In this document: piece after piece, positions 3,093-42,760 of the stretch | Position numbering within the stretch: position 1 is the stretch's first letter | How the letters are laid out: the number at the start of each line of letters is the position of its first letter | Assembly: GCA_963514005.1 (NCBI GenBank) | Contig: OY740790.1 | Coordinates: 55,490,001 to 55,554,000 of the forward strand | Reading direction: 5' to 3' | Length of the DNA: 64,000 nucleotides | Source of the DNA: Raja brachyura | Lineage: Eukaryota | Notes under the pieces: model-generated | Databases searched by the model: none | Told to the model about the DNA's origin: nothing | The model's input: the letters and a program-made list of their open reading frames with translations, nothing else | Position numbers and translations under genes: made by a program

Positions 3093-3184
3093 AAATGTAA
3101 AAAGGAATTGAACAATCTGAAATTTCTCCTTCACGTTACATATCAAATCACATTTGGAAATTTGTTGCCCATCTTTTACCATCA

Positions 3185-16000: not shown

Positions 16001-18075
16001 TCATGCATCAGGCTTATAGCTCCCATGCAGTTCAAAGCAAGAAGTTAAAGAATCAGAATAAGAGGGAACACAAAGAGCTAATGTAATTAAATATGGAAAT
16101 AAAATGGTTTGCACAAAATTCCACACACATGAAACAAACACCATGCACTTGAGTATGTCATAGAATGTCACAGGTGCATATTTATATTATCAGATGTCAG
16201 CAATGGAACTATGTAGCTATTAAGACTATTAAGTACCAGAACTGGGATGGACATTTAAAATTATATTTCCACACAAAATGCTTCTCTACCTTCACTAGTG
16301 CAAGCAATTGCAGCTTCCATTGAACTCTTCCTTATTTTATTTACTTACAGTTGCCTGTGTTTAAAAAGTTCATAACATGTACAAAACTGGAGATACCCTG
16401 TAGAAGTGGTATATTTTGCTGAAATTGTGCTAAACTGGTGTCAAAACTATGCATAACCCTACTTTCTTCGACAATGCCTCCAAATTCTTATTCCATATCA
16501 TTCTACTTGTGGGCCACTTTTGAGTCACATTCCCAAACAGCTATGGTATGAAATCTGAGAAAAAAACTTTGAATTTCCAGTAGCCAAAATTAAGCAAACA
16601 ACATAAAACATAATTTAACTGCAAAGAGAATGGGAATACGATGGTTATAGTCCCTAATTTTATGTGTTCAAAGGCTCCGAGCAACCAATCTTCTCTCCGA
16701 TCTCTGCAAGTGTAATTTTATATTTATTTACAAATGGGATGGAAGTACCTATTCCATCTCTCCCACAAAATAATACCAAACCCAAAAAATATTAACTATC
16801 TCTATGTACAATGTATTAGTTTCTTATAAACGCTGCTGCTAAAAATGAGAGCAAGGTACAAAGGGTTTAGTCTTGATAAGTAAAACTACATCTGATTACA
16901 GAGGAACATGACTTCGCAAAATATGAGAGTTATGACTTCATTTTGTTATAAATATCAGCATGAACTCAGCCGGGGAAATTGGGCTATGCAGTGCACGATG
17001 AAAAAAGCAAAGTAAATTTGTAAATGTTAACTAGTCACCATTTGAAATGTCTGAATATCAAAGATATTATTACTTGACATTAAAGTTTAATCTAGTTTGG
17101 CCAAGTTTTCTTGCTCAAAAGTTTGAAACCTAACCATAATTTTGGCATAAAATAATTTAAATTGCTTTAATTTGTTTGTACACAAACATTTCCTCTAATG
17201 ACTAGTATAACATTTCAGATTATACTTCTAACTACAATGGAAAACTTAACATTGCTAAGTTGGTGAAGCCTTTTATTTCCAAATCTTTCACATCTGCACT
17301 TTCCTGCGTCCATTTAACCATGTCAACTAGTTTTAAGGTTTCAAATATTAATATCAGAACTAATAGTAAAACAGACGTCAGTTCCTGAAGAATATTCCCG
17401 AATTGAGAATGCAGCTGTGATGCTTTTGTTTGTTATATGTTACATAAAGAATGAAATGCAAGCCAAAATGTTGGGTGTCAAACCACACATCCTTCCATGC
17501 AAGAATCTATTATAGCACATACTAAACACAAACTCACCGAGAAAAAAAATAAAGAGGGGGAGAAATAATAATTCAACATGCTCTGACATATTCACATAGC
17601 ATTAGCATCAAACGTATTGATTACTCTGTTGCTTTCAAGCTGGTAGCTGATATTGCTTAAAGGCATTAAATTAGTCCATTTTTGCTTCGAGATACCTCAA
17701 ATAACTGAATGGTGCTGTCAACTAAGATATAATTTTAAAAATTGAAGTAAAACTTTAACAAAAAAAAGTTTGATTTAACTTGCACTTGGAATTAGATTCA
17801 AAAGACGCTGTAGGTGGAAGCGTTTGTTCATGCGCTGTACTGTTGTTCATGATGGCTTCAGAAAATGAACAGCACTGATGAGACCTAGATATGAAGTCAA
17901 TGTTTCTCCTTCATTTTCACACTACAGTGAAGAAAAAAATGAAACCTTCTAAAGGAAAATCTAACCAAATATCATATGCCTGAATAAATTGGAGGAAAAG
18001 GATAAACTTGAAAAAAACTGATTCATTATCCACAATGAGTTGGACAAAATGGTGAATGATGAAGAAACAGTGTTT

Positions 18076-18161
18076 CACAAAAAGCTGGAGAAACTCAGCG
18101 GGTGCAGCAGCATCTAAGGAGCGAAGCAGATAGGCGACGTTTCGGGTCGAGACCCTTCTTC
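18076..18161 (-). mobile_element. Short Penelope-derived hammerhead-motif element
   Basis: Near-identical to 2374-2462; 13-bp TSD agaaacagtgttt at 18063-18075 and 18162-18174. Confidence 0.88.
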
Positions 18162-19239
18162 AGAAACAGTGTTTGCTACTTTGCTCAAATATGGCTGCCT
18201 ATGACGTTTAATGATCCCTATGGCAAAATATTCCCGTTAAAATGGTAACTGACTATAAAATATTTTGGGGTTCTGAAAGGAACATGAAAGATGCCATATA
18301 AATTTGAATCTGTTTTCATATTGCAACAAACTAAGATATTTTAAATATTTTATAGTGGTATTTGTTTATTAATCACTGTAACTCACATTAATCTGAAAGA
18401 TTTTATTTGATTTTTCTTGAAAGATGCAAAAAATGTGGCTTTATGGTGGAAAGGGAAGACACAAACCCAACAGTACATGTTGTTTCTGCATCATACAGGG
18501 TTAATTTTGGAAGAGGCAAAAGATTTGGAGAAAGGGTCCCTTAGATTATTGTGCAGGCAAAAAGGGTGGCATGGGAATTATTCAGATATAGAAGTGGGGC
18601 CTATCAGCATCACTGGGTATTATAAAGTCATTATAGAAAAATGCCGTAAGAATTAGGAGAAATTGGGCAAAGTTGGAAAGAGAAAATGTAATGGGCCTTT
18701 TCTTTTAGTTTGGATTTTGTCTGCTCACACGTTTCAAATTTAGATAAGAGGCTAAAATGGACAAAACAGAGTGGATTGCTAGGTCAATTAAAAAGGCACT
18801 TAAGTCAGGTAGACAAAACTCCAAAAACATAATAAACCAAACTGAACTCAACTTCAAACTTTCGGGGGGAAAAAAATCAGCCTATATTGTATAGTGCCTT
18901 TCATACTTTTCAGAGGTCTTCATAGTTAATCAAATAAACCTCTATTCTTATTGACTAATTCAATTTGCTGCAGGAAACATTGTTCAAATATGTCAAGACC
19001 TTTAATACATTTGGTTGTGGATTTGATATTTTAAGCTCAGTTGAGCCCCAAAATTTAAACTATTAAAATATGTTACATTATTTGACCTACAAATATCAAC
19101 TGGAAAGCATGAGTAAAACCAGTTTTGAGATAGCTTAGAAATTTCTAACCTAATTCGAATGTTTTTTTAACGCAGGTAAAATATCTGCCACTGTTTGGCG
19201 CAATAAACATATAATGATTAACACTAGTGTTAATGACTA

Positions 19240-19332
19240 GTCTGAAGAAGGGTCTCAACCGAAGTGTCACCCATCCCTTCCCTCCAGAGATGCTGCCTGT
19301 CCCGCTGAGTTACTCCCAGCATTTTGTGTCTA
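19240..19332 (+). mobile_element. Short Penelope-derived element, hammerhead core decayed
   Basis: ctgaagaagggtctcaaccgaagtgtc...gtgtcta. Confidence 0.75.
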
Positions 19333-20235
19333 TAATGTTTCACACAATTCATAACAAATACAAATAAAAACAAATTGATAGATCAAATTGATTTATTTAA
19401 AACATAACATTTGGTGTAAAAGTGAAACCAAATTCAAAACCTGGTTATTGGTAAGAAACCCCAATAAATTGTCAATGAGCATCTCAGAACTCTTTTAAAA
19501 GAATGTTCCAAATAATATATTTTGGGTTTGGGCTACAGTTCATACTTTATCCCCATTTCTGTCACGAGCTAACAGCAAATTATATATAAGTAAAATCCCC
19601 AATCAAGACACTATGGTAAGAAGTCTCAATCCCCACAGGCTTAGCCTGATCTAAATGCGTGAACATTCTTTTTCAAATTTACCAACGGATGATTATGTCT
19701 GCTGATATCTACATTTAGAATTCATGTTAACTTCAACGTTCCAGAATACTGATGTTACTCATGCATTTAGAAAATAGATTTGTAGGTGTTTAAAGCTATT
19801 CAATTTTGTGCATTACATAAGGATTTAAAAATAGAACATAATTAAAAAAATGGGTGAAATAACAGCATTTGTCATGATGATCGCGTGGAATTAAAAAAAA
19901 CATTTTTAAAAGCAGAATTCAAAATTGGGATTCTAAGATTACTGCTTCAAAATAATGCTCGTACAGCTACCAACTGTGAAAGAACCAGAGAGCAGTCAAG
20001 ATTCTCCTCATGGCACAAAGCAAAGCCAGTGATTGAGAACAGAAACAACATTAACATGCAGCACGCTGACACTTCCATAAGGTTTTAAAAACACTTAAGC
20101 AGAAAGTCATTTGACTCCAACAGGTAGGGCTAGGCCGTGACTGGCAAGGAGCCAGAAACCCCAGCTCTCCTTTGTCTCACTATAGGACAATCCGTTTGGC
20201 GTGGCGTAGATGGATAAGAAGTGAAAGAGACCAAC

Positions 20236-20247
20236 CTTCTCGCTGAT
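20236..20247 (-). CDS. PTPRF: Microexon meB (12 nt, ATCAGCGAGAAG, encodes DQRE), Ig2-Ig3 linker
   Basis: cttcatctctcag|exon|gttggt with a long upstream pyrimidine tract. As recalled, DQRE is the LAR-type meB (ELRE in PTPRD/PTPRS). Confidence 0.9.
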
Positions 20248-20403
20248 CTGAGAGATGAAGGGTTTGATGGTAGAGTGCAATGAGGATGAGGAGGGAATAA
20301 AAAGACAAGGAAAAACACAGAGAGTAAAAACAGGCCAGGCTTCATCAATCCTCTCAGCACTGAAAAAACAAGACAAGACAATAGCATGGTGGTTTTTCTG
20401 CTA

Positions 20404-20448
20404 CACGCACACACATATACATACGCGCACACAGACACACGCGCACAC
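20404..20448. repeat. Imperfect (CA/CG/TA)n alternating purine-pyrimidine tract
   Basis: Direct reading; similar tracts at 21208-21248, 34811-34859 and 56028-56063. Confidence 0.8.
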
Positions 20449-20805
20449 AAAAAAGCACAAAATTATTTGTCCTGTTATATTGACACCATATGTCACATAC
20501 CTAAAAAATTACCCACTTCTGTACACTGGAATATTAACTTTTCCATTACTGCACACTTGTCAGAAGGAAAAAGTTATGAATTAATTAACATATCACATAC
20601 ATTCATTGATTCTGGGCTGGGAAGTACCATGTAGACCTGAACAGTTTAAATAAAAATAATGAGGCAATCATTTCAGCGCATGGGATTTATGTAGAGTACA
20701 AAAATCAAACCAGCACATATACATGACCTTCAAACATAATACTACTCCTCCTTGTTATCAGAAGTTATAAAAACATAGATCTTAAATAAATGTACTCCTT
20801 TGTCA

Positions 20806-20925
20806 ATAAGGTCATAAGGGATAGGAGTAGAATTAGGCCATTCGGCCCATCATGTCTACTCCGCCATTCAATCATGGCTGATCTATCTCTCCCTCCAAAC
20901 CACATTCTCCTGCCTTCTCCCCTAT
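20806..20925 (-). mobile_element. CR1 LINE extreme 3' end
   Basis: gataggagtagaattaggccattcggccc is the reverse complement of a CR1-type 3' terminus. Confidence 0.7.
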
Positions 20926-22702
20926 AAACCAGCACCAAATATTACAGGCATTTATCATGATTGGAATTCCACTGTGGTAATTGTGCTTGGAATATGCTCG
21001 TTTTGGCATTCTGGCATATTGCAATTTTCCGTATATGTTCTGTTTTGCTCTCTGCTTCACTTCCCAGCCCTTCACATATGAGTAATACTTGGAAAAGGAA
21101 AAGAAAGGAATAAGATAGTGTTGTCAGTGTGCTCAGCACATTATCTTTGTATTCTGATCAAACAATGTGGAATAGAAATATTGTTAACTGCAGACAAATT
21201 AGTGACAACACACACACAGATACAAGCACATACACGCGCACACACACAGTTGTAGTATCCTTTTTCTCGGAACGGGGTTACCGTGTTTGTTCCAGTCACT
21301 TGATGGCTATTTTAAAACTCTGAAAGTTCAAAGAGAAAGGGTTATGACACAAGTCTGAGAGCTTGAGATTATTAAGAAAATTGAATTAATTTGCTGTACA
21401 GCAAATACTTCAGCATTCCTTCACACTTCTTTTAAGACTTGGTTTTAACAAAAAGGGTGAAATAGTCCAGTATCACGAGTTCTAATATTTTAAGCTTTAA
21501 GGCAATGATCAAAATTGCTTTCATTTGCATGTTCCCTAACCAAAAGGTTCAAGTTTCAAAAGTAAGTTGTGACTGCTGCCCCTTTCACCTTATAAAGTGT
21601 TGTTGAATGTTAATCTTCAGCTCTCCCGTCATTTGTGGTATTCCTAAATATTATCAACGATTAATTAGGACAAAGATCCAACATCTTATAGATTTTGACT
21701 TATTCTTCAAAATGTATTGTATTCTCTGTTGATCTATTAGGTGTATTAAGCCAGTTTGATGTAATTCCCAGGTATAATGTGAATCAGAAATGTATTAAAT
21801 AGGAAGCCAAATTGTCCACATGGCTGAGCTACTCGGTATGCAGCCTTTTACCTTAAGACCCACAAGTGTACTTCTGAGTGGGGTGGAAGATTGCAACTAA
21901 TTCGACTAATGCAATCAACTCGACGTGCACAAATGGAAGATCAAATAGAACAAGTTGTCCAACAACTTTAGGCTGTGCACGCCACACGAAAGAAGAAGTA
22001 CTTCTGAGTCATTTTATACATATAAGGGTTTCTGCTTTACTACCGTTTCAGCCATGTGTCATACACACTAACCCTCATCTGGTTCACAATATTTTAAACT
22101 TCTGTTAATCATGCACCTGGTTATTGAGCTCTACATGTCCACTCTATCTAGGCAAACTCAGTTTTCACTGCAATAAAGAGAATCTACATAATATTTCATT
22201 ATTGTTCAATTTCACGAGTTCTACCAAAATCCATTTCTCTCTTCCCTTCCATGCACACTCTTCCTACATTGAGGCAATCAGAGAGCTCTACTCTAACTAT
22301 AGCCGAATTTGCATATCACACTATTCTATGTACTTATTTTCAATAACTAAATGAGTTAATAAAACATTATTCATGCTGTTTTAACTGCATCAACTACTTC
22401 TCCTGTTGCTTTCAGGAATAAGTGGAAATGATCTCCAAGGGGTTCTATGTATTTCTTCACTTCAATTACCATTTATTACTTTATTTGTCCTTTCTGAATA
22501 CATCACCTTACAATTTTCTAGACAGAATTTTACTTACTGCCATCTTGCCCACTTCACCAACACTCACATGAAACTAAAGCTTTCATCTTTACTTAGTTTA
22601 GATCAAAGGAACATAAGCAAATACTGTGATGAATGGTAGAAAGGATTATCTAAAAAGTAAGATCTCTCAGCAATATGGGCAGAGTAGTGAGAGAAGGTTG
22701 AC

Positions 22703-23093
22703 TAAAGATCCTATAACAAGCAAGATAGATCACTCGACGAAAAAGAAGTAGTACAGTCATGGGCAGATTCATGGGTAATTTTCGGCCCCATTTCCGTAAC
22801 CGGCTTCCGTCTCCGCACCAAAGATCACATAGCGGAGCAAAGATAACTAGTGTGGTGACGGAAACATCCTCGTAAAAATAAAAGTTATTTGGTAAAAATC
22901 TTCTCCTCATTTTCAGAATTATAATTTATTAACACAAACTGTCCCCCCGGAACGTTGATTACACTGCGAATCGGGTAGGGTCGGGTTACTGAAATGTATG
23001 AAAAAAAGGCCCATGTTCCGCTCCGTTGCGTGCTACATGTCAGCCCATTGCATTTAGAAGGAGTGGTCTATCTTGCTTGCTATAAGATCTTTG
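22703..23093. mobile_element. MITE with about 30-bp TIRs and 8-bp TSD (hAT- or P-like)
   Basis: TIRs taaagatcctataacaagcaagatagatcactc / gagtggtctatcttgcttgctataagatctttg; TSD aggttgac at 22695-22702 and 23094-23101. Confidence 0.9.
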
Positions 23094-25351
23094 AGGTTGA
23101 CTAGCAGATATCATTAGTTGGGAAAAGGTTAACTGGTCAGTCTCCAGAACAAATGCCTTGCTGGATCATAGGAAAATTGATTTTGTGGATGCTTGTGAGT
23201 ATGTAGGACTCAGTCCATAGTATAAAGAAGGGCAGAAATAACCTACAAATATCATTATGTTAACTGTTATATTATGGTTACTGTGATCTCTCAATCTCAA
23301 GTAAAGGTATTTCACATAGCATAATGAATTCTGGTCGGTGATTCAAAGATTACTTATTGGATACAGCAGAGAAGAATGAAGTGGAAAGGATCAATCTGGC
23401 AGATCAATTAGAATACAGGTTCCAAATGAGGATCTGCAGGCTGAACTGAAAGTACAGAAGGGCATAGCGTGTGCATAAGCGAGTTCGGTATTATAACTGC
23501 GCATACCCAGGTCATGGGTCATTCGGGATAAACATTCTCACCAGCTGAGCTACTGTGTGTATATGGACCTGTGTATTAATCTCAATGAGATTTATAAATA
23601 AATGTAACTGTCAAATATGTCAGCACTAGGCCACAGCGTACTACAGGCTGCACAAATCCACAACTGTTTCTATTTAAATTATTGCCTCAATACAGCACCA
23701 GTCTTGAAAACTCAAGAATGCCTGGTACGAACCTGTCAATCAGGCATTAGCCCGAGTCACAGCCATTCAAAATTGATATTCATTTACACAAATTACGTTG
23801 TGTGGTTAACCAATTTGAGACAGACCTTTCATTCCTATCTAAACAACCTTCCTGGATTGAAGGAAGAGAGGAGAATGTGCTGTGTGGGGAGTAGCTTGGA
23901 AAGTTCAGATTGGATTCGAACAGGCTGGTTAAACTTTCGAGGTGGGTTGGCTTAAATAAAGATGCTGTCGCTTTAACCTCTGGGGTTGCTTCCAGTCTGT
24001 CAGGGCACACAGTTGGGAGCTGGGTCCGGGTGACCAGGAGATGATAATTATGAGAATTTGCAGCCATTTGAACCGCAGCCAAACTAGAGGCTTCGCTCAA
24101 GTGTGGGTCGCAGCTCCCCAGCTGACGGGACTGGTTCTTGCTATCTTTGAAGGAGGCACCACCCGCACCAACAAGTGGGCAAACGCGGAGCCAACCCGTA
24201 ATATGAGTGGGAGCATTTTCTCAGTCAGACTTTGTCGACAGTTTGGGTGGGGGATCTGGGAGAGAGAGAGCTGGCGATGCCGCACAGATGGAAAGTTTCA
24301 TAACGACCCATTAAAATCGGCCACTCGGCAAACTGGGCTGATCTGATCTGACAGCCCTCTCGCTAGCTCGCTGCGTGCCTGATCCTAACGCAGAACCTCC
24401 GCAAAACTTTTGGGTTTCGGGTAACACCTGCACAAAGAGCCTCTGCTAACAGGGGCTGGCAAACTGTGCTGGTCAGCGTGCACTTGGCGAGATGGCTGGG
24501 GGAAACACACCGCAACCACGGAACAGCACAGACCCTCCACTCAATCTATCCAATACTAAAGGGCAGGCATTTGTCAGTTAAATGTCTTATATCGGATTGG
24601 CGGCTCCTTCACAGGGCCAACCCTGTACTCAGTTTTCCTTGGAGATTAATCATTGCCTTAATGGTACATTCACACCGCCTGTAGGTAAAGCATCAGCCCA
24701 CATCACACTGATACAGTGGCTGCCTGCCTCAGATTAAATATAATTTAACTAATAAATTATGAATAAAGATAAGAAAATGTTTCAAACACAAGTAATATTT
24801 TCTTATTCCAGTAGCAAACACATTAAGGATTAAAGGAAAATAATACATTCTTTAATCTTTTGAATATCTCATAATTGCAGATTAATAAACTGAACTAGAA
24901 CTGGGATTATGTAAGTAGTGTGTGAACAGCAGAACAAGAAAGGAAGCTATTGAGTTGACAGAAGTCTAGATTTATTCCATGGTAGAACAATTCATACACA
25001 GTTTATACAGCGTTGTGTTCGCTTATTTTTAAATCTTGAATGACCTTTGACAAATCCCATGATTCCTTGCGTTAGTCGAGTTACCAAACTTGCTTATGGG
25101 GAGGGCAGTCATTTCTAATATAGCCAGCTGTAACATGGGTCTGAACCTGCACCTCCTGTGGCCCTACCCTTGTTATCAATGTGATTGACACAGTATCATC
25201 CTCTGCCTGAGGAAATTCACAGTTGTTAGATTGTGTGTTTGTATTATACAGTGGTCAACATGATCACTGTGGGCCAAAGGGCCTGTTTCCGTTCTGTATG
25301 CCTCTTTCATTGTAAATCAATGTAGGTGGTAATGCACCACTTCTAGTGTTA

Positions 25352-25443
25352 GGTAGACAAAAATGCTGGAGAAACTCAGCGGGTGAGGCAGCATCTATGG
25401 AGCAAAGGAATAGGTGACGTTTCGGGTCGAGACCCTTCTTCAG
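25352..25443 (-). mobile_element. Short Penelope-derived hammerhead-motif element
   Basis: Intact ctgaagaagggtctcgacccgaaacgtc on minus; 13-bp TSD acttctagtgtta at 25339-25351 and 25444-25456. Confidence 0.88.
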
Positions 25444-26526
25444 ACTTCTAGTGTTAATTCAGAGGAGTAATTAAAAGTTAATACTAATCAATCATGACTG
25501 AAATTGTAAATCACCTGTCTTTTCATAACCTAATTATAAAATTGCCAAATTTACTTAATGGAAACCAATGTTGCTTTTAGTTGCCATATCAAAACGTTCA
25601 AATCTAAGATATATGTACATTTGGTCAACTAGTTGGCAGAGCTGCTTTTGCTTTTTTTTAAAACAAGATGAATTACTTCAACAAAAGATCTCTAATCCCT
25701 GGAATCGTATTTTCTCTTACTACACAATATTATAAGATGGTAACATAAGCATCAAGGAAAAACAACATTAACTATCCAATATTTAGTGTTGGCCTAGATG
25801 GCCAATTTAAGACCTAGTTACTAACATTCATACACATGGGAACAAACCCTTTGGCTTACAGAGTCCACACTGACCACTCTTACACAAATCCAAATTATTT
25901 TTCTACAGATTCTACCACACACCTACATACTAAACGCAATTTACAGTGGCCAATTCACCTAACAACCTGTATGTCTTTGAGATTCTGGAGGAAACTGGAC
26001 CCACAGAGGACACCCACACATTCACAGCCAACACCGGAGGTGAGGATTGAATGCAGGTTAGTGCAGCTTTACCTGCTGCACCTTTGTGCTGCCCAGAAAT
26101 TGCCCCATATATAATGAAAAAAAGCTCGAATTATACTTGGTGATATTTTGCAAAAAATATCAAAATGTGAGGATGAGGCAAAAATCAAAAAAAGCACCAG
26201 AGGGCCACATTGCTGGTTTCATTAATTGTTCAGCTAGTTGAATATCAATGTGATTTGTCAACCTGTCATCTGATCACATTAATATGTTGCTAATTTAGAG
26301 ATCGCACAGGATCGCTGAACAACATTTGACAACACTGACCAAGTGTAGTTTTGTTTTTATGTTTTTTAAACAGGGAAGTGATAACGGACAATTAGCACAA
26401 TATAATATTTTTCTTGGAGAAATTAGATAAGTGGAATTACGGCGATCGGGAAATTGAAAGATCATAAAAGGAATTAAAAACATGAATTAGAATAAGACGT
26501 TGATGCCAAAACAGTTTACAGAGCTC

Positions 26527-26865
26527 AGGTAGACACAAAATGCTGGAGTAACTCAGCAGGCCAGGCAGCATCTCTGGTGAGAAGGAATGGATGATGTTTC
26601 GGGTCAAGACCCTTCTTCAGACTGATGTCTGAGGAGTGGGAGGAGAGATAGAATATAGTCGGAGACTGTAAGACTGATAGGATAACTGGGAAGGGGGAGT
26701 GGATCGAGAGAGAGAGGGAAAGCAAAGGCTATTTCAAGTTAGAGGTCAATGTTCAATGTAAGCTACCCAAGCGAAATATGAGCTGCTGTTCCTCCAATTT
26801 GCGACAGAAAGATCAGATTGGGAACGGGAGGGGGAGTTAAAATGCTGAGCAACCGGAGTTCAGGA
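26527..26865 (-). mobile_element. Penelope-like 3' fragment (degenerate GIY-YIG end plus hammerhead region)
   Basis: Homologous to 2370-2860 (ctgttcctccaatttgcg, gggaggggagtt). Confidence 0.75.
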
Positions 26866-27734
26866 GTGACTGATAAGGTTGATTTGTTGCATAATATCAA
26901 AAATTGAGTGTGCAAGACCAGGGTGAAGAGAAATGCAATAATCATATTTCGAAAGTGACAATAAGTATGGAGAAGCGCATCATGATGCTCATTGTGAAGA
27001 GAAAGATCAGTTTCCAAGGTTTTAACTCAAGATAGTGATATAAACATTAGTTTTGATCTGATAATCAGATAAATCATTCATCTTGCTGATGTTGAACATG
27101 AGTACATTGGGCAGGTTTATCAAAGGTGCAGAGAGTATGTTACCAGAGCACACGAGGAAAATCTTAAGTGACTATTAGTAAGTTGTATTTGGTAGGCAAA
27201 AAGGAGTGGCCGAGGGTAGATAATGCGCAGCAGTTTATGCTTATTGTTAGGGTTCTCTTGTTCTTGGTGTGGAGAATGTCTAGTATGAAAACCTGATTCG
27301 GCAGAGCTAACCCTGCGGCTGCAAAAATAACCAGATGGTGGCTGCTTTAGAAGGCAACAAGACCTTCAAGACTGTATAAAAGACAGAATGAGGATTAAAG
27401 AGTTTAAAGGAGTAGATAACGACTGTGATTAGGGAGGACAGAATCTCGGGAAAACAAAACTATTTATAATTTCAACTATCGCATAACCAGCATTTACTTT
27501 ATTGGGATTGGTGAAAAAAAGGGACAATGTACCCCGTGGATTAGACAAGCTTCAAGATGGCATGAAAGGAGATGAGAGAGAAAAGAAAAAGTTGCGGTTC
27601 AGTACTTTTTGGGTTTGTGAAAATAAATAAACAGTAAAGAAAGCTACTGGCTAATCTAAATCAAAGCGACAAGGCCTAGACGCTACTGTTATCTGTTGCT
27701 AGTCTGGTTAAAATTGATACAAACAGCGATTGAA

Positions 27735-27965: not shown

Positions 27966-29951
27966 TGGTTGAGTGCCATTGAGTTGGTTTTGAATCCAGT
28001 TGACACATTCGACTAACCTTTTCCAAAGTTCAGCTATCCTTTGAAGTTGTTACAGAGACATACAAACGTTTTTCTTTAATCTCGTCTTTTCATTTTGTCT
28101 GCTGTATCTTCTTCCTATTCTCTTCCACTTTGCAAAACATGATAGAGACCATGAAAAATGGATGGTCTAAATTTCAAATTGGTGGTCTAAGAATTCAATT
28201 AAATAGTTGAAGGTAAACATGCTTCCCGGGCTTGGCAGAGTTCCGGAAAATTATGAAAATACAGAAAATGCCAAATCTTACAGTGATGTTGGTCCAATCA
28301 GGCAATGTTTGTGAAGGGAGAAGAGATAACTTTTCAGATTGATGGCCTTTCAGTTGATGATCACTTCAGGAGAACTGTCCCATTAGTAGACATGGTACAG
28401 GAAGAATATGATATAAAAAGTCCAAGATTTAAAATTACATGTGAAAAGAGTTAACTTGCAGTATTCACAAACCAGCATGTGGATTCAAAGGATGTGTAAA
28501 GAAATATAATTCATTTTATGACCAACTTTTCTAATCCACAATTTGACAGTAATACATCAAATTTCTGGTTGATTTTTATGGCCTCGGAGTGTGACAGGTT
28601 TAAATGGCCAATTCTCTTACAACGCAGAGGATTTTAAATGATCTCTAGCAAATGTCAACTTGCTTTCTTTCACGCTTTCATAAAGTTCAGAATTCACATC
28701 TGTACAAAGCCTGTGGGAACAGCAATGTTCTTAACATTCTTACTGAAAGTTGAAAGCCTCTAGCCACAATACATATGTATCAAAAACACTGCTGCTGGAA
28801 TCTGAAAAAGAAATCCCGCACAACTCTGGAAGTGTTGATCTGGGAAGAAGATGACATGTTGGAAATGGACTAAGTTTTAAATTGTTAAGAATGGGGAGAA
28901 GGAAGGAGATGAATGAGATCTGAATCCCAGAAGAGAGGGAAAAAATGTATGACTGCTGGATAAACAAAACGAGTGGTGCTGACTATCTGAAATTGTTGAG
29001 CCGTCAAGGATGTTATGTTAAGTTATAAGATGAGAAGTTGTTACCAGCAGACACATTTGTCCCTCTCCTCCTTTTCCACGATCCAAAGGGAACCATTTCC
29101 TTTAGTTTGGTTTACTTGGGAGATACAGCGCCGAAACAGGTCCTTCGGCCCACCAAGTCCATGCCGACCAGTGATTTGAAAATTATAATGTATAACTTGT
29201 TCGACATCTATTTTTTTCCAGCTCTGATGAAAGTTTATCAACTTGAAACACTGACTTTCTGTTTTCATTTTACACGTTGAGATTTAGACATCATGCTTCA
29301 GAAGAGAGCTTGAGAGGATTTATCTAGTACATGTAAAGAGAATGAACCAATAAGGAAATGCCAAGAGAGCTAACTGCAGGATAAGTACTAGAATCAAGGA
29401 AACGTTCTGCCCACTGACAACTGCTGACAAAAGAATAATGGCTTCCTGGGCACATCCACTTCAAGCTTGCATGGGATTTTCACATTTGACATTAGCATTT
29501 GTTAATTCTCAAGGCTTAGTGTCAGTCTTAACTGACAAGAAGCACTGCTGACTGAGTCAGAAGGCTGTTGAACCATTTCACGACATAACAAGGCTGACAC
29601 TTTATGACCATATTTTTGGATATTAATGTCAGGGCCCTGCTGGTAATGTGCAATATTCTATCCCGCTATATGTAGTAAATCAAGGATGTTGTTTAGTGCT
29701 TTGGGGCACGTCTTCCCTCAACCAATATAATTAAAATGTATCTGATATTATTTATGGGGCAATGTACATAAATAGGCTACTTTTCTCTATAAATTATAAT
29801 ATAGTAAATAAAGCAACATCTACTGGTTTAAATTTTCCACTGGCTCATCTAAGAAACCATTTCTACTGTTACCTAAAAAACTTGTTAAATACCATATGAA
29901 ATGAACAGCACATCTAAAGTGATACCATAAGCGAGACAAGGAACTGACAAT

Positions 29952-30084
29952 CAGTCTGAAGAAGGTCTCGACCCGAAACGTCACCCATTGCTTCTCTTCA
30001 GAGATGCTGCCTGTCCCACTGAGTTTCTCCAGCATTTTGTGTCTATCTTCGGTTTAAACCAGCATCTGCAGTTCCTTCCTACAC
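29952..30084 (+). mobile_element. Short Penelope-derived hammerhead-motif element (longer 3' variant)
   Basis: ctgaagaaggtctcgacccgaaacgtc; 10-bp TSD aactgacaat at 29942-29951 and 30085-30094. Confidence 0.85.
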
Positions 30085-30982
30085 AACTGACAATTATTAA
30101 TTGTTGCCATATATATAATGCCATGATATTAACATCATGCAACCAAAATTTATATTCTTATTTTAAAACATCATCTGCTTAAAAATGTCTGATCTGTTAT
30201 ACTGCGAATCTTGCACTTACCCAAAGCAAAAACAAGGAGGGTCCAAAAACATGTACAGATGAACTAACAATCTGCATTCTGTCCACTGCTGACTTGCAAG
30301 CAAGTCTGGAAAGGAGACCAAAATCAAGACCTATTGTATTACCTCTTATTTTTGACTGCGCACAGAATTGGTGTGTTAAAATCTAGTGTGAATGATAAAA
30401 GAAATGGGATGACATTTATCTAATAAGAAATTTATAATGTTCTAAATGGATCTAAAATAATAAATAACATAACTAGTAATGTTCAATTAGGAAAGATCAC
30501 TTACAAAGATGACATAATAAATAAATATCTAACAAAAGCACTTACTTTGAAAGGATTAAATGAATTAAATTGAATAATTCCATTATTTACTATGCCAACA
30601 AAAGTTCGGAGACCTCAATTTTGGTATCTTAAAAAGTGTCCATTCAGATCTACCTTTGATAAAATAGAATCTCAGGAGCGAAAAAAACCTCAAAGACAAA
30701 AAACCCAAAATGGAATCAAGGCATCCTTAATTTAGGTATATAATATTGTGATTGCTTTGAACAGAAAAGGCAATCCGTTTCTTTAGTAGACATGTGCTTG
30801 GAATACTACAAATGATTTCAACAGGTTGTAATTCTCACCTATAAAAAAACAATATTGTCCTCAAATAATATCTTCATTATTCAAACACAAAAGCATTCAG
30901 GCCCAGAAAACTTCTCACTAGCAAATACATTTACAGAAGCATGACTTCATGTGGGTCGAATGGGAAAAAATGCATTTCCTAC

Positions 30983-31093
30983 CTCTGACGTACAAGTTGG
31001 CTGGAGCAGAGTAACGTGTTCCAGCACTGTTAGTTGTTACGCATTCGTATTTGCCCTGGTCGGACTCTTCGCTGTTCTCAATCTGCAAGGCAC
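30983..31093 (-). CDS. PTPRF: Ig2 second-half exon (111 nt): [37 protein letters not shown]
   Basis: Manual translation; acceptor tatgcag, donor gtagga; phase 1-1. Absent from the ORF track. Confidence 0.96.
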
Positions 31094-32002
31094 CTGCATA
31101 ACAACAGACAGACAGTTCTGGTAACTTCTAATCCATCAACATGTGATCCACCTTTGAGATACTAATGCGATGCAATGTGAAAAAGTCGTCTTCAAATGCT
31201 AACATTCAAGCCTCCTTTTTGCAGTTTCTCCCAACTTGTGAAAGAATGAAATGAAGAGACATAATTAATATGTTATTGCACCCTTGGGCTAATATCTATA
31301 ATTTTAAAATTGTTACTGTACCAACAAAGATTTTCACATATGAATTAAAAAGAAAAGTATTTCTTCGGATTATTATTTTAAATGAGCACATCTCTATAAA
31401 ATGGTAAACACTTTCATGCATGAAACTGAACTGACCTTGAAATAGATTTCCATTCTCCCCACTAACCTCAGCCAACTTCACAATTCCATACTTGAATGGG
31501 TCTTATCCAACTTAATAAACATGAACGAGTTTTGTTGACACCACATACATGCCTTGTGTTTTTAACCTTGGCCTACACTGAAACAGCACCCTTATGTAAC
31601 TAATACTTCAACTCATACATGATGAATGATCAAGAAGTTTTATGCAGTTACATGAAATGTGTGATGGATACTCCACTACTTACTTCACAAATGTGAAAGC
31701 TTGTATAATGATTCTTATGCCACAAGTTATTTTCAATGTAAAATGGGATTTTGATAAACATAGTTACTTTTTCAAGACAACTTTGCCAAAAAATATCTTG
31801 AACTTATGTGGTACAGAAATGTTTTTACTTGCCATCATATTTAATACAACATAAAATGTATTGAATAAAACTAGATAACCACTACTTAAATGATTTTTTA
31901 TAGCCAAAATTGGGAAAACAGTTTAACTGCATCTGGGTGACCACAGATTTGTTTCTCAGAAAAATGAAATCAGCAATACAAAATATGTATAAGCACGTTT
32001 CT

Positions 32003-32140
32003 GGAGGAGATTCACTGTGATGGATATTTGTGTAAATTGTGTTGTGTCTTGGTTCTTTTTCTTGTTTGTATGACTGCAGAAACTAAATTTCGTTTGAACC
32101 TCAACGAGGTTCAAATGACAATAAATGGTATTGTATTGTA
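32003..32140 (+). mobile_element. LINE/SINE 3' end with hairpin and (TATTG)n tail (Rex-like)
   Basis: Hairpin tttgaacctc-aac-gaggttcaaa, then tgacaataaa and tattgtattgtat. Confidence 0.55.
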
Positions 32141-32185
32141 TGGTTTCGCTTGGGCAACTTGCAACCCAGTGGCATGAATATTGAG

Positions 32186-32710
32186 GGTACACAAAAAGCT
32201 GGAGAAACTCAGCGGGTGCAGCAGCATCTAAGGAGCGAAGGAGACAGGCGACGTTTCGGGTCGAGACCCTTCTTCGGGTCTCTTTCGCTCCTTAGATGCT
32301 GCTGCACCCGCTGAGTTTCTCCAGCTTTTTGTGTACCTCCGATTCTCCAGCATCTGCAGTTCCTTCTTTAACAACGGTATGAATATTGATTTTGCTAAGT
32401 AATCCCTGCATTCCTTCTCTCTCCATCCCTCCCCCACCCAAGTCGTACCAGCTTCAAAGTCGTCTTGTTGAGTCTCATTGTCTGTACTTGTTCTCACCTA
32501 ACAAACAGCTAACAATGGTTTGTTTCCTTTATCATCATTATTTTTTTAATATCTTTCACTCATTTGTTCTATTTCTCTCCACATTGCCGTTCAGATCTCT
32601 TGTTTCCCTTTCTCAGTCTGAAGAAGGGCTTCGACCCGAAACGTCACCTATTCCTTTTCTCCAGGGATGCTGTCTGAACCGGTGAGTTACTCCAGCTTTT
32701 TGTGTCCATC
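32186..32710. mobile_element. Composite Penelope-like insertion: 60-bp-arm palindrome plus plus-strand 3' segment with hammerhead motif at about 32618
   Basis: Inverted arms 32186-32245 and 32278-32337; ggtatgaatattgattt matches the GIY-YIG ORF end. Confidence 0.85.
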
Positions 32711-35700: not shown

Positions 35701-37253
35701 TGGATTATTTTATTTTAAACTTATAACATCGCAGAAGGAACCCATTCAGCAACAGAGTCTGTGCAACAGACTCAGGAGAGCAATCCCATTAGTTCTATAC
35801 CCCTCTGCCTATTTCCCCTGTACCCCTGCAACGTATTCTCTCTCCCGTCTGATTCATTTTTGCCTGTGACCCACTAACCAGTAATTTACGGTAGCCAATT
35901 AACCTACCATTGCGGTCAAGGAGAGGAAGATTAGTCTGAAGCTTTGAGTTTTCCCACAGGCTGGAGATTTCAAAATAGTCAGGTGGTTTGTGATCAGTAC
36001 AGGGATAATAGAATATTAAAGCCTAAATTTTGGAATTGCAATATCAATTTAAAGCTCAGGGGAAGGAAGACTGAAAATAAACATCTGCTTCAGGCTCTCC
36101 AGTGTAGCCACAGCTAAGTGGGTAGGCATCCTGGCAGGAAGATTAAATCCATAAACCTGTCAATTTTTTATTTTATTTAATCCACTGGAATTGTGGAATA
36201 TTTATTACACAAACCACATCATATGTGTAGTCAGTTTAAAACAGTCCACGTATAATTTAACGAAAAAAACATACTTTCTAGTCACCTCACTTACACTTCA
36301 TATTGTGAGTAGACTGGTGAATAAAATATCATCCTTTTCCTGATACAAATTTTATAGTGCATGATGAACAGTTAAACCACCAATTTCTTAATGTCATAAT
36401 TTAGTGATGGTAACTTAATTGTTGCTGCATTTTAAAAAACTGACCATGGCCTTGTGTCTATTTTTAATACCGAGGATGTGTGAACAGATATAATGATACA
36501 AATCCTGAAGCTGAAAAATAAAATGTTCCACCATCACAGTGATCAAAGCAGCGGATTATGTCATTGGCTTTCTTTAAAATCTCATCTGAACGAACAAATA
36601 GGCTCTTATCTCATATTGCAAATTGATTTTGTTCAGATTTATTTGCATATTGACACTGGCAAATGAACCAATTTGAACCTTTGAATTTAACATGTGAATT
36701 CACTTTTGCCAAATCCTGAAAGGCTATATTGCTAAAAAAAATTAAATAAAAATGAACAGTGTATTGGTCACATAAATGATTATTGATTACACTTCAGGTT
36801 TAACATAATTATAATGGCCACTTAGAATGCTAATGCCATGGAGAGATGTTTTAAACTAGTCCAAAACATAAAATGTTGCAGCAGTTCTGTTGAATATTAG
36901 TTTTTCTTTCATAGTGGCCAGTCCTCCTGGAGACATTAAATTCCCACACACAAGAAGTTTCAGGCACATCTCCAAATTAAAAACATGTTCATCAGATTTT
37001 ATTTGGGTGATTAAGTGGTTCTGACAGATGATAATTTGCGTCCATTTTGTGTAAAAAAAGTAAAGCAATAGAAAACAAAAGCCACTGTACGCTGGAGTTT
37101 AAACATATGGGGCACGGGTTTAAAATGAGAGAAGGGGAAGGATGGGCTGAAAGCAAAGTGTTGGGGCCAAGAGAATGCAAGGAAATGAAAACATTGGAAG
37201 AAGAGGAGAAATGGAGCGTGGACGATGATTTTGAGCACGTTCAGCATTCTTAC

Positions 37254-37271
37254 CTCGGATTGGTGTACCAC
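37254..37271 (-). CDS. PTPRF: Microexon meA6 (18 nt, GTGGTACACCAATCCGAG, encodes GGTPIR)
   Basis: ctcaccag|exon|gtaaga; peptide matches the known LAR-RPTP meA6; upstream pyrimidine tract with UGC. Confidence 0.95.
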
Positions 37272-37838
37272 CTGGTGAGGTAATTTGAATGCAAATAAGA
37301 TTAAAGAGAAGTATTAGTATAGAGGAGAGAAAAAAACAAAGAAAACCAAAGGAAACAGGAAAGAATTAGATTTTTATTATATATAATATATATATATATT
37401 TCTTTCTAAGCGACAGAAAAGGTTGATGCAAAATAACATGTCAGAGCAATTTCTTAGGAAGGTTAGTAAAGCTGTTCTCAGCAGTGCAGCATCCATGTAA
37501 GTGCTTGGACATGTCCAAGTTCTGGAGTAACGATCAGTCTTCTGCTGGTTAACTCATATAAACAGCATTGTGCTGTGGGTGAAATATCAGGGAAAAAGGT
37601 TCATGTTCTTTCAACCTTTTTTGTTAAAGCATTTTCAACCATTGCATCAGATTTGAAACCTTTTCCTGGACAGCAAGAAGAATGTATAATTTGGTCAGGG
37701 TTCATTAGATGATATTTTGTGTTATTACAAGGAGCTTGTTATGAGACATGGTAGGAAAATGTGTATGGCTCAGTTAGTAGAAGAATGCCATGCACCACTG
37801 CTTTTATGCAAACTGCATTCTGAACACCAAGCACTTAC

Positions 37839-37847
37839 CAAAGGATT
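37839..37847 (-). CDS. PTPRF: Microexon meA3 (9 nt, AATCCTTTG, encodes ESF)
   Basis: ttctgtctctcagttgaacttctcag|AATCCTTTG|gtaagt; phase 1-1; correct position between the Ig2 exons; homologous to PTPRD ESI and PTPRS ETF. Confidence 0.85.
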
Positions 37848-38719
37848 CTGAGAAGTTCAACTGAGAGACAGAAAACAGAATTAAATAGAACACATCGTGC
37901 CAAGTGAGCCTTTAAAGCTATTGATAGATAGGATTTAACACAAATGGTTCATAAATTTACTATCGAATGCTTGGATCACAATTCAGGATATACCTGTATG
38001 AATTGAGTTGGCACAATGAAAAACTAAAAGCCTTTTATCTTAAATAAATTATGTAAAAGTAAACAAACATATTATCATTTAACCTGTAACAAGAATAATG
38101 GCATCTTGCAAATATCTGCATGTCAGTTACCTGAAGAGATTTTAATAAATTTAAAAGGACACGATGTAACATTTAAGTTATTTCTTAATTTCTTCCCATA
38201 GTGTACAAAACAATTGGAAATATTTTACACAACTAAAATAAATTAGTAGCTTTGACAACAATTCTCTTGAACATGTTTATGTTTTATTTCTAAGAATAAT
38301 ACAGCAAACTAGACATGTATTTTTTTAACCTCAGTATCTTCCACTGCCAATACTTTCATTTAGTTTTGCTTGCCAGAAGGTTAATTCCCAAACAGTTTCA
38401 CAAAGCAATGCCTGGTTTGGCGAGGAAAATTATCTAGATTTGCATATCAATTACAACGCTGCAGACATAAATTTGCAGGGGAAACAGAGTAGGTTTATGA
38501 TACTTCCATAGTTGAACAGCTTGCTAATATTTACCCTCTAAATTTAAACATGAATAGACTTGTTATACCACAGATACACAAAGACAAGCAGGCCCCAGAT
38601 TCAATTCAGTCTTTGTCGCTTTACCTGTTCTCTCCCAGGGTGGTAGTTTAAGTTAAGACTCGCCCCAGCATTTCAGATTTGGAATAAGGGGTTCACAGAC
38701 ACACTTTTTTCAAAACCAA

Positions 38720-39062
38720 ATATAGGGTACAAAATCATGAGCGGACCAGGTAGATCAGGTAGATGCACAGTTGGGGAATCGAGAACCAGACATAGGTTAA
38801 AGGTGAAAGTGGAAAGATTTAATTGGAATCTGAGGGGTAACTTTTTCAAAGAAAAGGTGGATCGAGCTGCCAGAGGAAGTGATTGATGCAGGTACTATCA
38901 CAATGTTTAAGAATCGTTTAGACAGGTATACGGATTGGACAGCTTCAGAGGGATATGGGACAAATGTAGGCCGGTGGAACTAGTGCAGTTGGGACATGTT
39001 GGCTGGTGTGGTGAAATTGGGCCAAAGGGCTCATTTCCACATTGTAAGACTATGACTCTAAA
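38720..39062 (+). mobile_element. CR1 LINE 3' fragment
   Basis: gaggggtaactttttca...gagctgccagaggaagtg...atgactcta. Confidence 0.75.
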
Positions 39063-40138
39063 TAAGCAGGATTGTATTAGAAAAGAGGATTTGGGGATCC
39101 ATGCTATAAATTTCTGTAACATGTATTCAAAGTAACGAGTGATCTAAAAGTGAGAGTGCTTATAGAAGAAAGGAACACTATGCCTCGAGGAGTGTTTAAG
39201 TCGTCCTAAGATTAATTTAATTATACATATATTTTCATGAACTATTGCAATTGTTTCAGAGGCAGCCTCATTTCATTGTTTATTGATCATTTTCAAGAGC
39301 TACCAGAAAAATAATCTCATCTATTGACACTGCATCTTTCACGTAGTTATAAACAAAATTCTACCTAAAAAAGCTAAACTGAAAGAATAATTTCATGCCT
39401 AAAAATTAAATTAAATTAAATCCATTCGTGCCATTTTTTGGACAAGTGTTTAGCATACGATAATGGCCATATTTTGCAGTGTCTGATGAGTTTCCCGGTA
39501 AAATCCTACATAGAGGGAAACTGTACTATATACTTCTTGCACAATTAATCCCATCACTGCAGATTATTGCCCCAATCACAGGTCTTGTCCCTCTGGTGAT
39601 TGTGGATGTTCCTTTGTTAAAGAGCTTTGAAATTTACCCTCCCTCTCTATCTTCTCTTCCACACGGATTGATTTCACATTCTCACTCTCTAAACGCCTCC
39701 TCCCACTCTTTCCCTAATCTCATGGACAATCTGTGTAGCTGTCTGCAGAGAAAGCTCTTCAACAGCACTGGCCTGCTTCCCATGGGTCAGTATGTAAACT
39801 CCAGCTGCAAGTCCAGCAAGCAGCTCTCTGTATAAGATATACAGGTTGGGTTTGAAGCTTACAAAATATACAAAGTGTGCCCATAAAGCATGGATGTCCC
39901 AATTATATGAATATTGATGCTAACATTAAAACAGATTTCACCCAACTAAAATGTGAGCAATCAAATATGTTGGTAAAAATTCATGTGGAAAAAGACATTC
40001 AAATATAAAAATCTGCCTGCATTTTTTACTTCTGCTCAGTTTAGTTTGATGTCTTGCCTCATTCTGAATTATTTATTTTACTCATTTTTAATTCTTTCAA
40101 AAAATGTAGACTGGGTGTTCTATATTCATTCAAATATA

Positions 40139-41718
40139 CAGTGTCCTCCATAATGTTTGGGACAAAGACCCATCGTTTATTTATTTGCCTCTATACTCCA
40201 CAATTTGAGATTTGTAATAGAAAAAAATTACATGTGGTTAAAGTGCACATTGTCAGATTTTATTAAAGGGTATTTATATACATTTTGGTTTCACCGTGTA
40301 AAAAATACAGCTGTGTTCATACATGGCGCCCCCCCCCCCCCCCCCCCGTTTCAGGGCACCATGATGATTGGGACATGGCTGCACAGGTGTTTGTAATTGG
40401 TCAGGCGTGTTTAAATGCAGGTATAAAGAGAGCTCTCAGCACCTAGTGTTTCCTCCAATCTTTCCTTCACCTTTGGAAACGTTATTGCTGTTTATCAACA
40501 TGAGGACCAAAGTTGTGCCAATTAAAGTCATTATGAGACTGAGAAAGAAGAATAAAACTGTTAGAGACATCAGTCAAACCTCAGGCTTACCAAAATCAAC
40601 TGTTTGGAATATAATTAAGGAGAAAGAGAGCACTGGTGAGCTTACTAATCGCAAAGGGACTGGCAGACCAAGGAAGACCTCCACAGCTCATGACAGAAGA
40701 ATTTTCTCTATAATAAAGAAAAATCCCCAAACACCTGTCCGACAGATCAGACTGTTCAGGAGTCAGGTATGATTCGTCAGTGACCAATGTCCGCAGAAGA
40801 CTTCATGAACAGAAATACAGAGGCTACACTGCAAGTTGGAAACCAGTGGTTAGCTGTAAAAATAGGATGGTCAGGTTACAGTTTGCTAAGGAGTACTTAA
40901 AGGAGCAACCACAGTTCTGGAAAAAGGTCTTGTGGACAGATGAAACGAAGATTAGCTTATATCAGAGTGGTGGCAAGAGCACAGTATGGAGGACAGAAAG
41001 GAACTGCCCAAGATCCAAAGCATACCACCTCCTCTGTGAAACACGGTGGTGGTGGTATTATGGCCTGGGCATGTATGGCTGCTGAAGGTACTGGCTCACT
41101 TATCTTCTTTGATGATACAACTGCTGATGATAGTAGCATAATGAATTCTGATGTGCATAGACACATCCTATCTGCTCAAGTTCAAACAAATGCCTCAAAA
41201 CACATTGGCCGGTGGTTCATTCTACAGCAAGACAATGATCCCAAACATACTGCTAAAGCAACAAAGGAGTTTTTTCAAAGCATGGCTTTTATATGCTGAA
41301 GGGAAAACTGAAGGGGACTAGCCCCCAAAACAAGCATAAGCTAAAGATGGCTACAATACAGGCCTGGCAGAGCATCACCAGAGAAGATACCCAGCAACTG
41401 GTGATGTCCATGAATCGGAGACTTCAAGCAGTCATTGCATGCAAAGGATGTGCAGCAAAATACTAAACGTGACTACTTTCATTTGCATGACTGCTGTGTT
41501 CCAAACATTACGGTGCCCTGAAATGGGGGCACTATGTATTAGCACTGCTGTCATTTCTACATGGTGAAACCAAAATGTATAAAAATAGCCTTTATTAAAA
41601 TGCGAAAATGTGCACTTTAGCCACATGTGATTTTTCCTATTACAAATCTCAAATTGTGGAGTACAGAGGAAAATAAATAAATGATGGATCTTTGTCCCAA
41701 ACATTATGGAGGGCACTG
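40139..41718 (+). mobile_element. Near-full-length Tc1 transposon with long IR/DR-type TIRs (1580 bp)
   Basis: TA flanks at 40137-38 and 41719-20; about 220-240-bp TIRs with outer and inner direct repeats (cagtgtcctccataatgtttgggaca / tcagggcaccatgatgattgggaca). Confidence 0.95.
40500..41466 (+). pseudogene. Frameshifted Tc1 DDE transposase
   Basis: HTH region, GRPRK, WTDETKI and QQDNDPKH are split over three ORFs; the SPDLNPIE segment is missing. Confidence 0.9.
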
Positions 41719-42285
41719 TACAGCATGCAGCCAGTGTGGAAAACGTGTGGATGGTTTGAGCAATTATTGTATCTCGTTTTGTCTGTCCTTGCATATTAGC
41801 AACAAGTATCTATGAGCTATCTCTCTCCAAGCGGAGAATATATATTTTTTAATAAAAGAGAAGCAACCTGCCAGTGCAGTTATCTTAAAGTTCTGGAAAT
41901 GATAAATCTTTACTCAGTTTTCAGCCAAATGACAAAGCTGCTAATCAAATTCTTTTCAGCACCAAATTAAATCAATAACCTTTTGATGGATTATTTCACT
42001 TACACTCCACTTATAAAAACCCAAAAGAGTAACACCTTTGGAAAAAGAAGACACATCGCCCAGCAAGGTGGTGATAGAGTCCTTCCCTTTACTTTGCTGC
42101 TTCATTAGAAATGGTGAATTGGCTGCAGATTGGACTTTATTTCTAATTACTGGGAGTGACCTCTGTAGAATAATACTCTGCACAACTATTCTCCTCCTTC
42201 AGCCCCATCTTACCGACTTTCACTCAAGCTTTGTAGATTCTGAGATGGTTCATGAGGCCAACATGGGATTTATAGGGATTTATAG

Positions 42286-42379
42286 TCTGAAGAAGGGTCT
42301 CGACCCGAAACGTCGCCTATCTCCTTCGCTCCTTAGATGCTGCTGCACCCGCTGAGTTTCTCCAGCTTTTTGTGTAACC
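42286..42379 (+). mobile_element. Short Penelope-derived hammerhead-motif element
   Basis: Near-identical to the 2368 element's 3' end; 14-bp TSD catgggatttatag at 42262-42275 and 42380-42393. Confidence 0.9.
42287..42314 (+). ncRNA. Minimal type I hammerhead ribozyme motif (representative copy)
   Basis: CUGAAGA-A-GGGU(CUCG)ACCC-GAAAC-GUC. Stems I and III are minimal; activity is not shown. Confidence 0.65.
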
Positions 42380-42760
42380 CATGGGATTTATAGACACTGC
42401 CACAGTCGTGGGAGAAGATGTTTAATGTGATGGGCAGTTGGGCAAGTTGGGAATTGATGCTCTTGCTGCTTTTTGCTGGATCTCTGCATGCTTGTACTGA
42501 GCAGACTCCAAAGTTCTCAGTGCTGTCCTATGTGCTCCTTCTCCACCATGAGCAACCACAGAACAGGGTGAGTTGGTGAGATGGTTCGATTTAATACTAT
42601 GAAGGCTTTCAGAGCATTTCCTTCAAGTATTTCCTTAGTCCTTCAGGTACTCGGTTGTCATATTGAAAATCAGAGCAGAGTTTCTATTGTAAGAATCTGG
42701 TATGTTGAATTCAGCGTAGTATAATTAGAGTCTTGACAATGGGGAAGTGTTTCGGTTCGA

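Follow-up and report, generated by a model that had tools for sequence, protein, structure and literature searches.

Short hammerhead-headed insertions in the genome of Raja brachyura as probable run-off by-products of a Penelope-like element

We analysed a 64,000-nt stretch of the Raja brachyura genome (contig OY740790.1, positions 55,490,001 to 55,554,000; hereafter the window), which contains several very short insertions headed by a hammerhead ribozyme motif. These raise a simple question: what fixes the point at which such copies begin? A preliminary description had derived them from the 3' end of a Penelope element and had proposed either a discrete SINE-like unit mobilised in trans or reverse transcription stopping at the ribozyme fold. 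The question touches the Penelope-like transposition cycle as a whole, including the RNA start, the role of the hammerhead, and the inverted ends with their one-sided tail.

Insertions in the window and their parent element

Signed positions are given relative to the C (position 0, or C0) of the CUGAAGA box; all others are window coordinates. The following features were distinguished:

2368..3092, minus strand: 5'-truncated Penelope-like element, subfamily A, with a 14-bp TSD (2354-2367 / 3093-3106)
18076..18164, minus strand: short copy, subfamily A, starting at -1/0 and ending at about +87, with a TSD (18064-18075 / 18163-18174)
19239..19333, plus strand: older short copy, subfamily B type, core at 19242
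25352..25446, minus strand: short copy, subfamily C type, starting at -3..0, with a TSD (25339-25351 / 25444-25456)
26527..26624, minus strand: remnant of a long copy, being the terminus of a different subfamily that has an upstream UTR of its own; further matches at 26756-26856
29952..30084, plus strand: short copy with a 35-nt tail (putative second priming site), subfamily B type, starting at -4
32185..32373, arms on opposite strands: head-to-head pair, subfamily A, with an 11-bp TSD (32174-32184 / 32379-32389)
32501..32710, plus strand: older copy extending upstream of the hammerhead into the UTR
42284..42379, plus strand: short copy, subfamily A, starting at A(-3) after target-derived filler and ending at +93
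42761..42889, plus strand: older tailed short copy, subfamily B type, core at 42761
58588..58768, arms on opposite strands: decayed head-to-head pair, tail on the minus arm
59651..59745, minus strand: short copy, subfamily C2 type, inside a low-complexity repeat, starting at -4

As initially described, the insertions at 18076, 25352, 29952 and 42286 each have a TSD of their own (12, 13, 10 and 14 bp, respectively) and start 0-4 nt ahead of the CUGAAGA core, a boundary also seen in the copies at 19240, 42761 and 59650. At 18076 the TSD overlaps the 87-bp element by 2 bases, and at 25352 it overlaps the 92-bp element by 3 bases (microhomology of the start with the TSD). The 133-bp element at 29952 lies between 29942-29951 and 30085-30094, and the 96-bp element at 42286 is accompanied by a target-derived 10-mer (42276-42285) within a TSD at 42262-42275 / 42380-42393. 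In the pair at 32185..32373 the minus arm runs from +2 to the +93 site and the plus arm from +33 to +128. The reported likeness of the seven copies to the end of the 2368-3092 element stands as regards identity (80-100%, the copy at 42284..42379 being identical to it), but the copies represent several subfamilies, differing in their upstream UTRs, rather than one, and only those at 18076 and 42286 belong to the subfamily of that element.

The element at 2368..3092 consists, in this order, of a GIY-YIG C-terminus, a 3' UTR, the hammerhead core (C0 at 2461) and an end at the +93 site. Its GIY-YIG match is above the Pfam cut-off (E 9.6e-05), and near-identical matches to the fragment number at least 150 genome-wide. 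Long copies contain a frame of 898-920 aa with matches to RT and GIY-YIG, both of which, in the 898-aa frame, lie below the Pfam cut-offs (RVT_1, E 2e-4; GIY-YIG, E 1e-3). DKG and YIDD motifs are present, and a CX4CxxC motif is located at aa 765 of the frame of the long inverted copy L132. The combination of RT with a C-terminal GIY-YIG in a single ORF is that of EN+ Penelope-like elements (PLEs), and a CX2-5CxxC linker precedes the endonuclease, a motif common to Neptune and Nematis in the consulted part of PMC8557442. By its motifs, the parent element fits the Neptune type of that study.

Hammerheads were found at both ends, approximately 3,967 bp apart, in 3 of the 20 loci taken for the N-terminus, and one locus is composed of four tandem units with a 3,965-bp period. 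The full unit of about 3,965 bp includes the pLTR, a 35-nt tail and the ORF, upstream of which the order is UTR, hammerhead, +93 site, the tail to +128, and the ATG at +163. Tandem or partial-tandem pLTRs, a 30-40-bp tail and inverted 5' copies were all observed, as in EN+ PLEs. The short insert corresponds to the stretch from the hammerhead start to either 3' site, which occurs at both ends of the unit. Judged by sequence, the short inserts are thus the pLTR terminus of an abundant RT+GIY-YIG element of the known class of PLEs. Their supposed derivation from its 3' end is probably to be reversed, since the same pLTR precedes the ORF and the evidence favours the 5' copy as template; this template may have been full-length RNA or, alternatively, short transcripts of dispersed pLTRs.

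The boxes of a minimal type I hammerhead, helices II and III, and a palindromic helix III can be read from the sequence, although Rfam gave no hammerhead match at E<=1, and plain MFE folding of the monomer and the dimer produced a shifted stem rather than the canonical hammerhead. The consulted part of PMC4209133 describes the same arrangement in metazoan PLEs, namely CUGANGA and GAAA boxes, an extra base before G10.1, a palindromic helix III and, as in D. virilis, a 2-bp helix I. The whole unit is pLTR sequence, and Rfam models of tRNA, 5S and 7SL found no match at the insert sites.

Positions of the 5' and 3' ends across the genome

Genome-wide counts were obtained as exact-pattern matches in the 2.7-Gb assembly with a fixed anchor at +33..+52. 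The anchor alone was matched 62,164 times, the anchor plus 0..+7 40,682 times, and the anchor plus -13..-6 only 11,453 times; the genome therefore contains about 62,000 young copies. The end points were read from 124 subfamily A arms sampled with an anchor at +44..+69. This sample took in every match within nine blocks totalling 1.264 Mb, the window among them, together with the loci surrounding 82 of the first 100 matches listed; the latter are contiguous and not random. Subfamily A anchors were used because BLAST coverage of the long element, in which the step is visible, is confounded by subfamily-specific UTRs. In contigs of sequencing runs (of uncertain RNA status), the loose ends before -4 resemble the UTR of other subfamilies, and for this reason they were not used as evidence for the boundary.

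About three quarters of the young copies are short: 94 of the 124 arms start at -9..+37 and the other 30 run further upstream. The starts of 81 arms lie at -9..+10, with a peak of 40 arms at -4..-2. The end rate per base was 0.081 at -5..+2, compared with 0.003 at +11..+43 and 0.0009 at -150..-10 (some upstream end points being unreliable, as the alignment halted at poly-C tracts), i.e. 25-90 times higher than on either side. A smooth distribution of 5' ends, which would have spoken for random truncation, is thus contradicted both by the step in the genome-wide counts and by the peak in the sampled arms. The fixed 5' boundary of the preliminary description goes far beyond chance, but the peak is spread over approximately -9..+10 and is not confined to a single base.

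The 3' ends of the same arms form two clusters, at +93 (81 arms; +92-94) and at +128 (43 arms; +128-129). The short arms comprise 57 solitary copies and 37 of head-to-head type. A TSD of at least 7 bp (range 7-18 bp) flanks 28 of the 57 solitary copies, compared with 11 of 276 shuffled pairs, and none was detectable in the other half; 43 of the 57 are without a tail and 11 extend to -4 or beyond. The boundary is common to each subfamily and also to the copies which contain the start of the ORF. Among the 30 best of 40 such copies scored, 13 end at -6..+34 (four of them at -6..0), five at +76..+134, and 12 further upstream, four of the latter being located in one array.

Origin of the 5' boundary

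The initiator consensus is YYANWYY, and a match to it places +1 at A(-3); further matches occur at -31 and -43. The sequence YCAGT is kept at the point where the divergent UTRs of the subfamilies converge. The template base at -4 is C, and among copies with another base before A(-3) we counted, genome-wide, 2,603 with G and 2,494 with A or T. Since 60 of the first 100 listed A/T cases were A, the A cases number about 1,500, giving a G/A ratio of approximately 1.7. At the control junction +12, the corresponding counts were 27 G and 48 A (odds ratio 3.1, p 2.5e-6 for the comparison with A(-3)). In subfamily B, 1,493 G and 1,004 A precede A(-3), although roughly a fifth of the listed G cases show one variant pattern and may represent a single composite lineage. 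The G excess is small, amounting to about 1,800 of 62,000 copies.

Thirty loci starting with G were inspected: six were head-to-head, 14 (of the 24 solitary ones) had no readable TSD, and 10 had a readable one. The G lay outside the TSD in nine of these 10 loci and inside it in one; the extra sequence in the nine was G (five loci), GG, CCG, or a longer filler ending in G (two loci). None of the four ORF-start copies ending at -6..0 carried an extra G directly before A(-3).

We consider it likely, from the ends and bases described above, that the boundary records the capped start of the RNA, and that the short copies are run-off products of internal priming at +93 or +128 on the 5' pLTR. RNA polymerase II would initiate at A(-3), three bases ahead of the hammerhead core, and the enzyme of the element would nick both target strands about 10-15 bp apart. 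Internal priming, of the kind demonstrated in vitro with the anole element, would take place at +93 or +128; on the downstream pLTR it would give ordinary truncated or full-length copies. On the 5' pLTR it would run off at the capped end, often with a base added opposite the cap, and the resulting cDNAs, resembling strong-stop DNA, would represent the first ~96 or ~131 nt of the RNA. The inserts are probably by-products of Penelope copying rather than a separate mobile element.

Retroviral minus-strand strong-stop DNA is likewise a cDNA ending at the capped 5' end of an RNA. The same holds for full-length L1 insertions, in which, according to the consulted part of PMC11702581, an extra G marks capped and fully copied RNA. 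In contrast to both, the start here would be internal and target-primed near the RNA 5' end, so that the short product is itself integrated. A start site within the pLTR has a precedent in Penelope, for which the part of PMC2377424 available to us describes an internal promoter and start site in this region. The arrangement with the hammerhead at the start is not universal, because in D. virilis Penelope the hammerhead forms the end of a 5' UTR intron and not the start site, as far as the consulted parts of PMC4209133, PMC2377424 and PMC8557442 indicate.

Cleavage at the GUC site was rejected as the origin of the 5' ends, as the preliminary description had already argued: the ends lie upstream of the cut site, and junctions at +28 (after GUC) number 316 genome-wide, i.e. 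fewer than 1% of copies, and three among the 124 arms. At the control position +12 there were 75 junctions (two of the three bases counted), and +28 may thus hold a small excess. The proposed stop at the ribozyme fold fared no better. RT travels 3' to 5' on the RNA and meets the fold from +20..+30, so a stall would place ends there, whereas the observed ends accumulate beyond it, on its 5' side, and show an additional G. It is true that the ends coincide with the motif and that 13 of the 124 arms end at +11..+43, but the fold of the monomer is weak (-7.9 kcal/mol), the G excess is absent at +12, and the end rate is concentrated at -5..+2 as given above; stalling, or ordinary 5' truncation biased towards short products, is therefore extremely unlikely. 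The hammerhead was probably copied uncut and merely marks the spot. Ends beyond the fold agree with the behaviour of the anole element, which inserts uncut RNA (PMC11167929).

Any blunt RNA end may suffice for an RT to add a base, and the extra G would thus also suit an RNA whose 5' end at -3 arose by processing, through an uncharacterised cut or a 3'-splice-site-like CAG, instead of initiation. The UTR upstream is rich in pyrimidines and terminates in CAG, several subfamilies contain a CTRAC-like motif, and the intron of D. virilis ends at hammerhead helix I (PMC4209133, consulted in part). We regard processing as unlikely, given that -3 differs from the GUC site; its spliced form was rejected because the peak retains the AG which splicing would remove, and because in five of the six solitary copies starting at -1 no exon sequence lies between the copy and its TSD. 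A separate SINE-like family, whose members are transcribed at their own loci and mobilised in trans, would account for the fixed boundary, the TSDs and the predominance of short copies, and a composite non-autonomous derivative with a pLTR end does exist (two copies seen). Against it, short and long arms show the same divergence from the reference (2.6% and 2.8%; 94 and 30 arms), and in this small sample no variant was specific to the short arms, the one nominal difference (+90) being an artefact of end calling. Among the copies listed, 9 of 100 that bear upstream sequence had the +41 A variant, as did 13 of 100 that start with G. The boundary is shared with ORF-start copies and every subfamily, and most solitary copies lack a tail. 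A haplotype comparison with ORF-start copies was biased towards the query and was left out. Minor short-only lineages are possible, but a discrete family of this kind is unlikely.

Head-to-head pairs and comparison with known systems

Twenty-two opposed pairings were found within 2.5 kb, 21 of which combine a short with a tailed arm. We counted the 16 pairs lying within 250 bp and dropped six (five mixed and one short-short, some of them probably unrelated). All 16 consist of one +93 arm and one +128 arm, for which p is 3e-6 if the arms are taken as independent; a single complex arm extends to +229. A TSD of 11-17 bp flanks 14 of the 16. The +41 A variant is common to both arms in four pairs and discordant in none, which suggests one template per pair, although gene conversion or a single active source locus would look alike; +41 is a CpG site, and L132, the long inverted copy, shows discordance there. 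Exact palindromic junctions with their centre at -1 were counted at 1,237 loci when all subfamilies sharing this core were pooled, and two cDNA ends at -3 or -4 could anneal at such a junction.

Such consistent pairing is in keeping with PMC11167929, where two priming sites and extension of both strands were shown in vitro. Where extension proceeds on both target strands, +93 would serve one of them and +128 the other, with head-to-head joining of the resulting cDNAs. We tentatively propose, as a possibility close to even, that a dimeric enzyme performs such two-site twin priming on one capped RNA (+93 on one strand, +128 on the other), with strong-stop DNA formed at its 5' end. Self-priming on an antisense template, put forward to explain the palindromic junctions of rotifer elements (PMC3846280, consulted in part), could also yield short and head-to-head copies, and the exact junctions and shared variants of the two arms would suit it. 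It predicts neither an extra G on the 5' end of the sense strand nor solitary copies that have a TSD and end at -3, and arms differing in their 3' site, as they do in 16 of 16 pairs, would be unexpected from a fold-back; we therefore judge it very unlikely.

The consulted part of PMC8557442 describes Neptune-type EN+ PLEs with the same single ORF, DKG, YIDD RT, CX4CxxC linker and C-terminal GIY-YIG, as well as partial tandems, inverted 5' copies, a 30-40-bp tail at one end and a pLTR hammerhead, but no dominant pLTR-only class with a fixed 5' end and an extra G. A tail on one inverted arm has already been reported, to judge from the parts of PMC3846280 and PMC8557442 consulted, and was put down to antisense self-priming. 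Poseidon of Anolis carolinensis (PMC11167929) has two internal RT start sites bounding the tail, extends both target strands and does not need hammerhead cleavage. Its ORF begins inside the hammerhead, whereas that of the skate element begins at +163, and no strand difference in the start site was seen in vitro, whereas paired arms here always differ; the RNA 5' end of Poseidon was not mapped in that study. No description of a cap-marked run-off class of Penelope copies was found in the titles, abstracts and passages of the literature consulted.

If the run-off reading is correct, these tiny copies predict, for the in vitro system already in use, that the RNA starts at A(-3), that the template is uncut and that each target strand has one priming site. 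Twin priming, if it holds, would mean that the short and palindromic copies, tens of thousands in number, together record where the RNA starts, where both primings take place and on which strand each does so, and would explain why the tail is one-sided and the repeats head-to-head throughout the class. Thousands of solitary hammerhead motifs have been ascribed to truncated PLEs in the consulted part of PMC4209133, where motif ends were not mapped and cleavage was proposed for RNA processing, in contrast to the rarity of starts at the cut site found here. Run-off would make many such solitary hits in animal genomes by-products, rather than a SINE or retrozyme class. The non-LTR retrozymes (bioRxiv 10.64898/2026.07.22.740005) are likewise pLTR-derived, hammerhead-bearing and non-coding, with many monomers, but are defined by at least two head-to-tail tandem units, whereas the 94 short arms of the skate element are solitary or of head-to-head type and start upstream of the cut, with only 3 of all 124 arms starting at +28.

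Composite and tandem copies

Two copies on separate contigs of the skate assembly (G000) were found to carry the same sequence foreign to the Penelope-like element (PLE) upstream of a subfamily B pseudo-LTR (pLTR):

C2, block position 66864, minus strand: composite copy
C7, block position 54263, minus strand: composite copy

Common to both are an upstream stretch of 400 bp or more that does not belong to the PLE, the pLTR with its tail (35 nt between +93 and +128, counted from the C of the hammerhead CUGAAGA box as 0) and approximately 25 bp downstream. Judged from this shared structure, the pair represents a composite non-autonomous element in which the pLTR serves as the 3' end. A matching variant pattern was observed in about one fifth of the listed subfamily B rows with a G before A(-3).

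Tandem arrangements were also found:

G000:C18:46360000-46376000 (L173-L176 and L270): four or more complete units of 3,965 bp each, repeated head to tail
C1:74835266-74835567, C1:117724515-117724730 and C2:55272483-55272631: short arrays of 61-63-bp units beginning near +28, the junction after the GUC cut site

The C18 array, which is preceded by a 1.4-kb truncated unit, is a candidate source locus; the short arrays could be retrozyme-like or stutter products.

Start points and spacer of pLTR copies

Within the sample of 124 subfamily A arms (pLTR copies), G precedes all three solitary arms beginning at +2, and G(+2) is a possible minor start site. Four near-full-length copies (L158, L170, L191 and L193) start at about +76 to +85 or at +122, immediately ahead of the tail, and in this position resemble the Penelope form described as a solo ORF flanked by 34-bp repeats.

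One head-to-head pair, whose arms both start with G before A(-3), contains a spacer:

L231:683-829 (C1:1207582-1207729): 147 bp between the arms

This spacer is flank DNA from 200-340 bp downstream, copied in inverted orientation.

Insertion surroundings

Judged from the flanks of the sampled subfamily A arms, many young copies lie in what appears to be CR1-type LINE sequence, in some cases at target motifs that resemble one another. The window also contains a further repeat:

60599-60821: inverted repeat of about 220 bp, probably a MITE-like element, with a weak, below-threshold match to Rfam MIR7533
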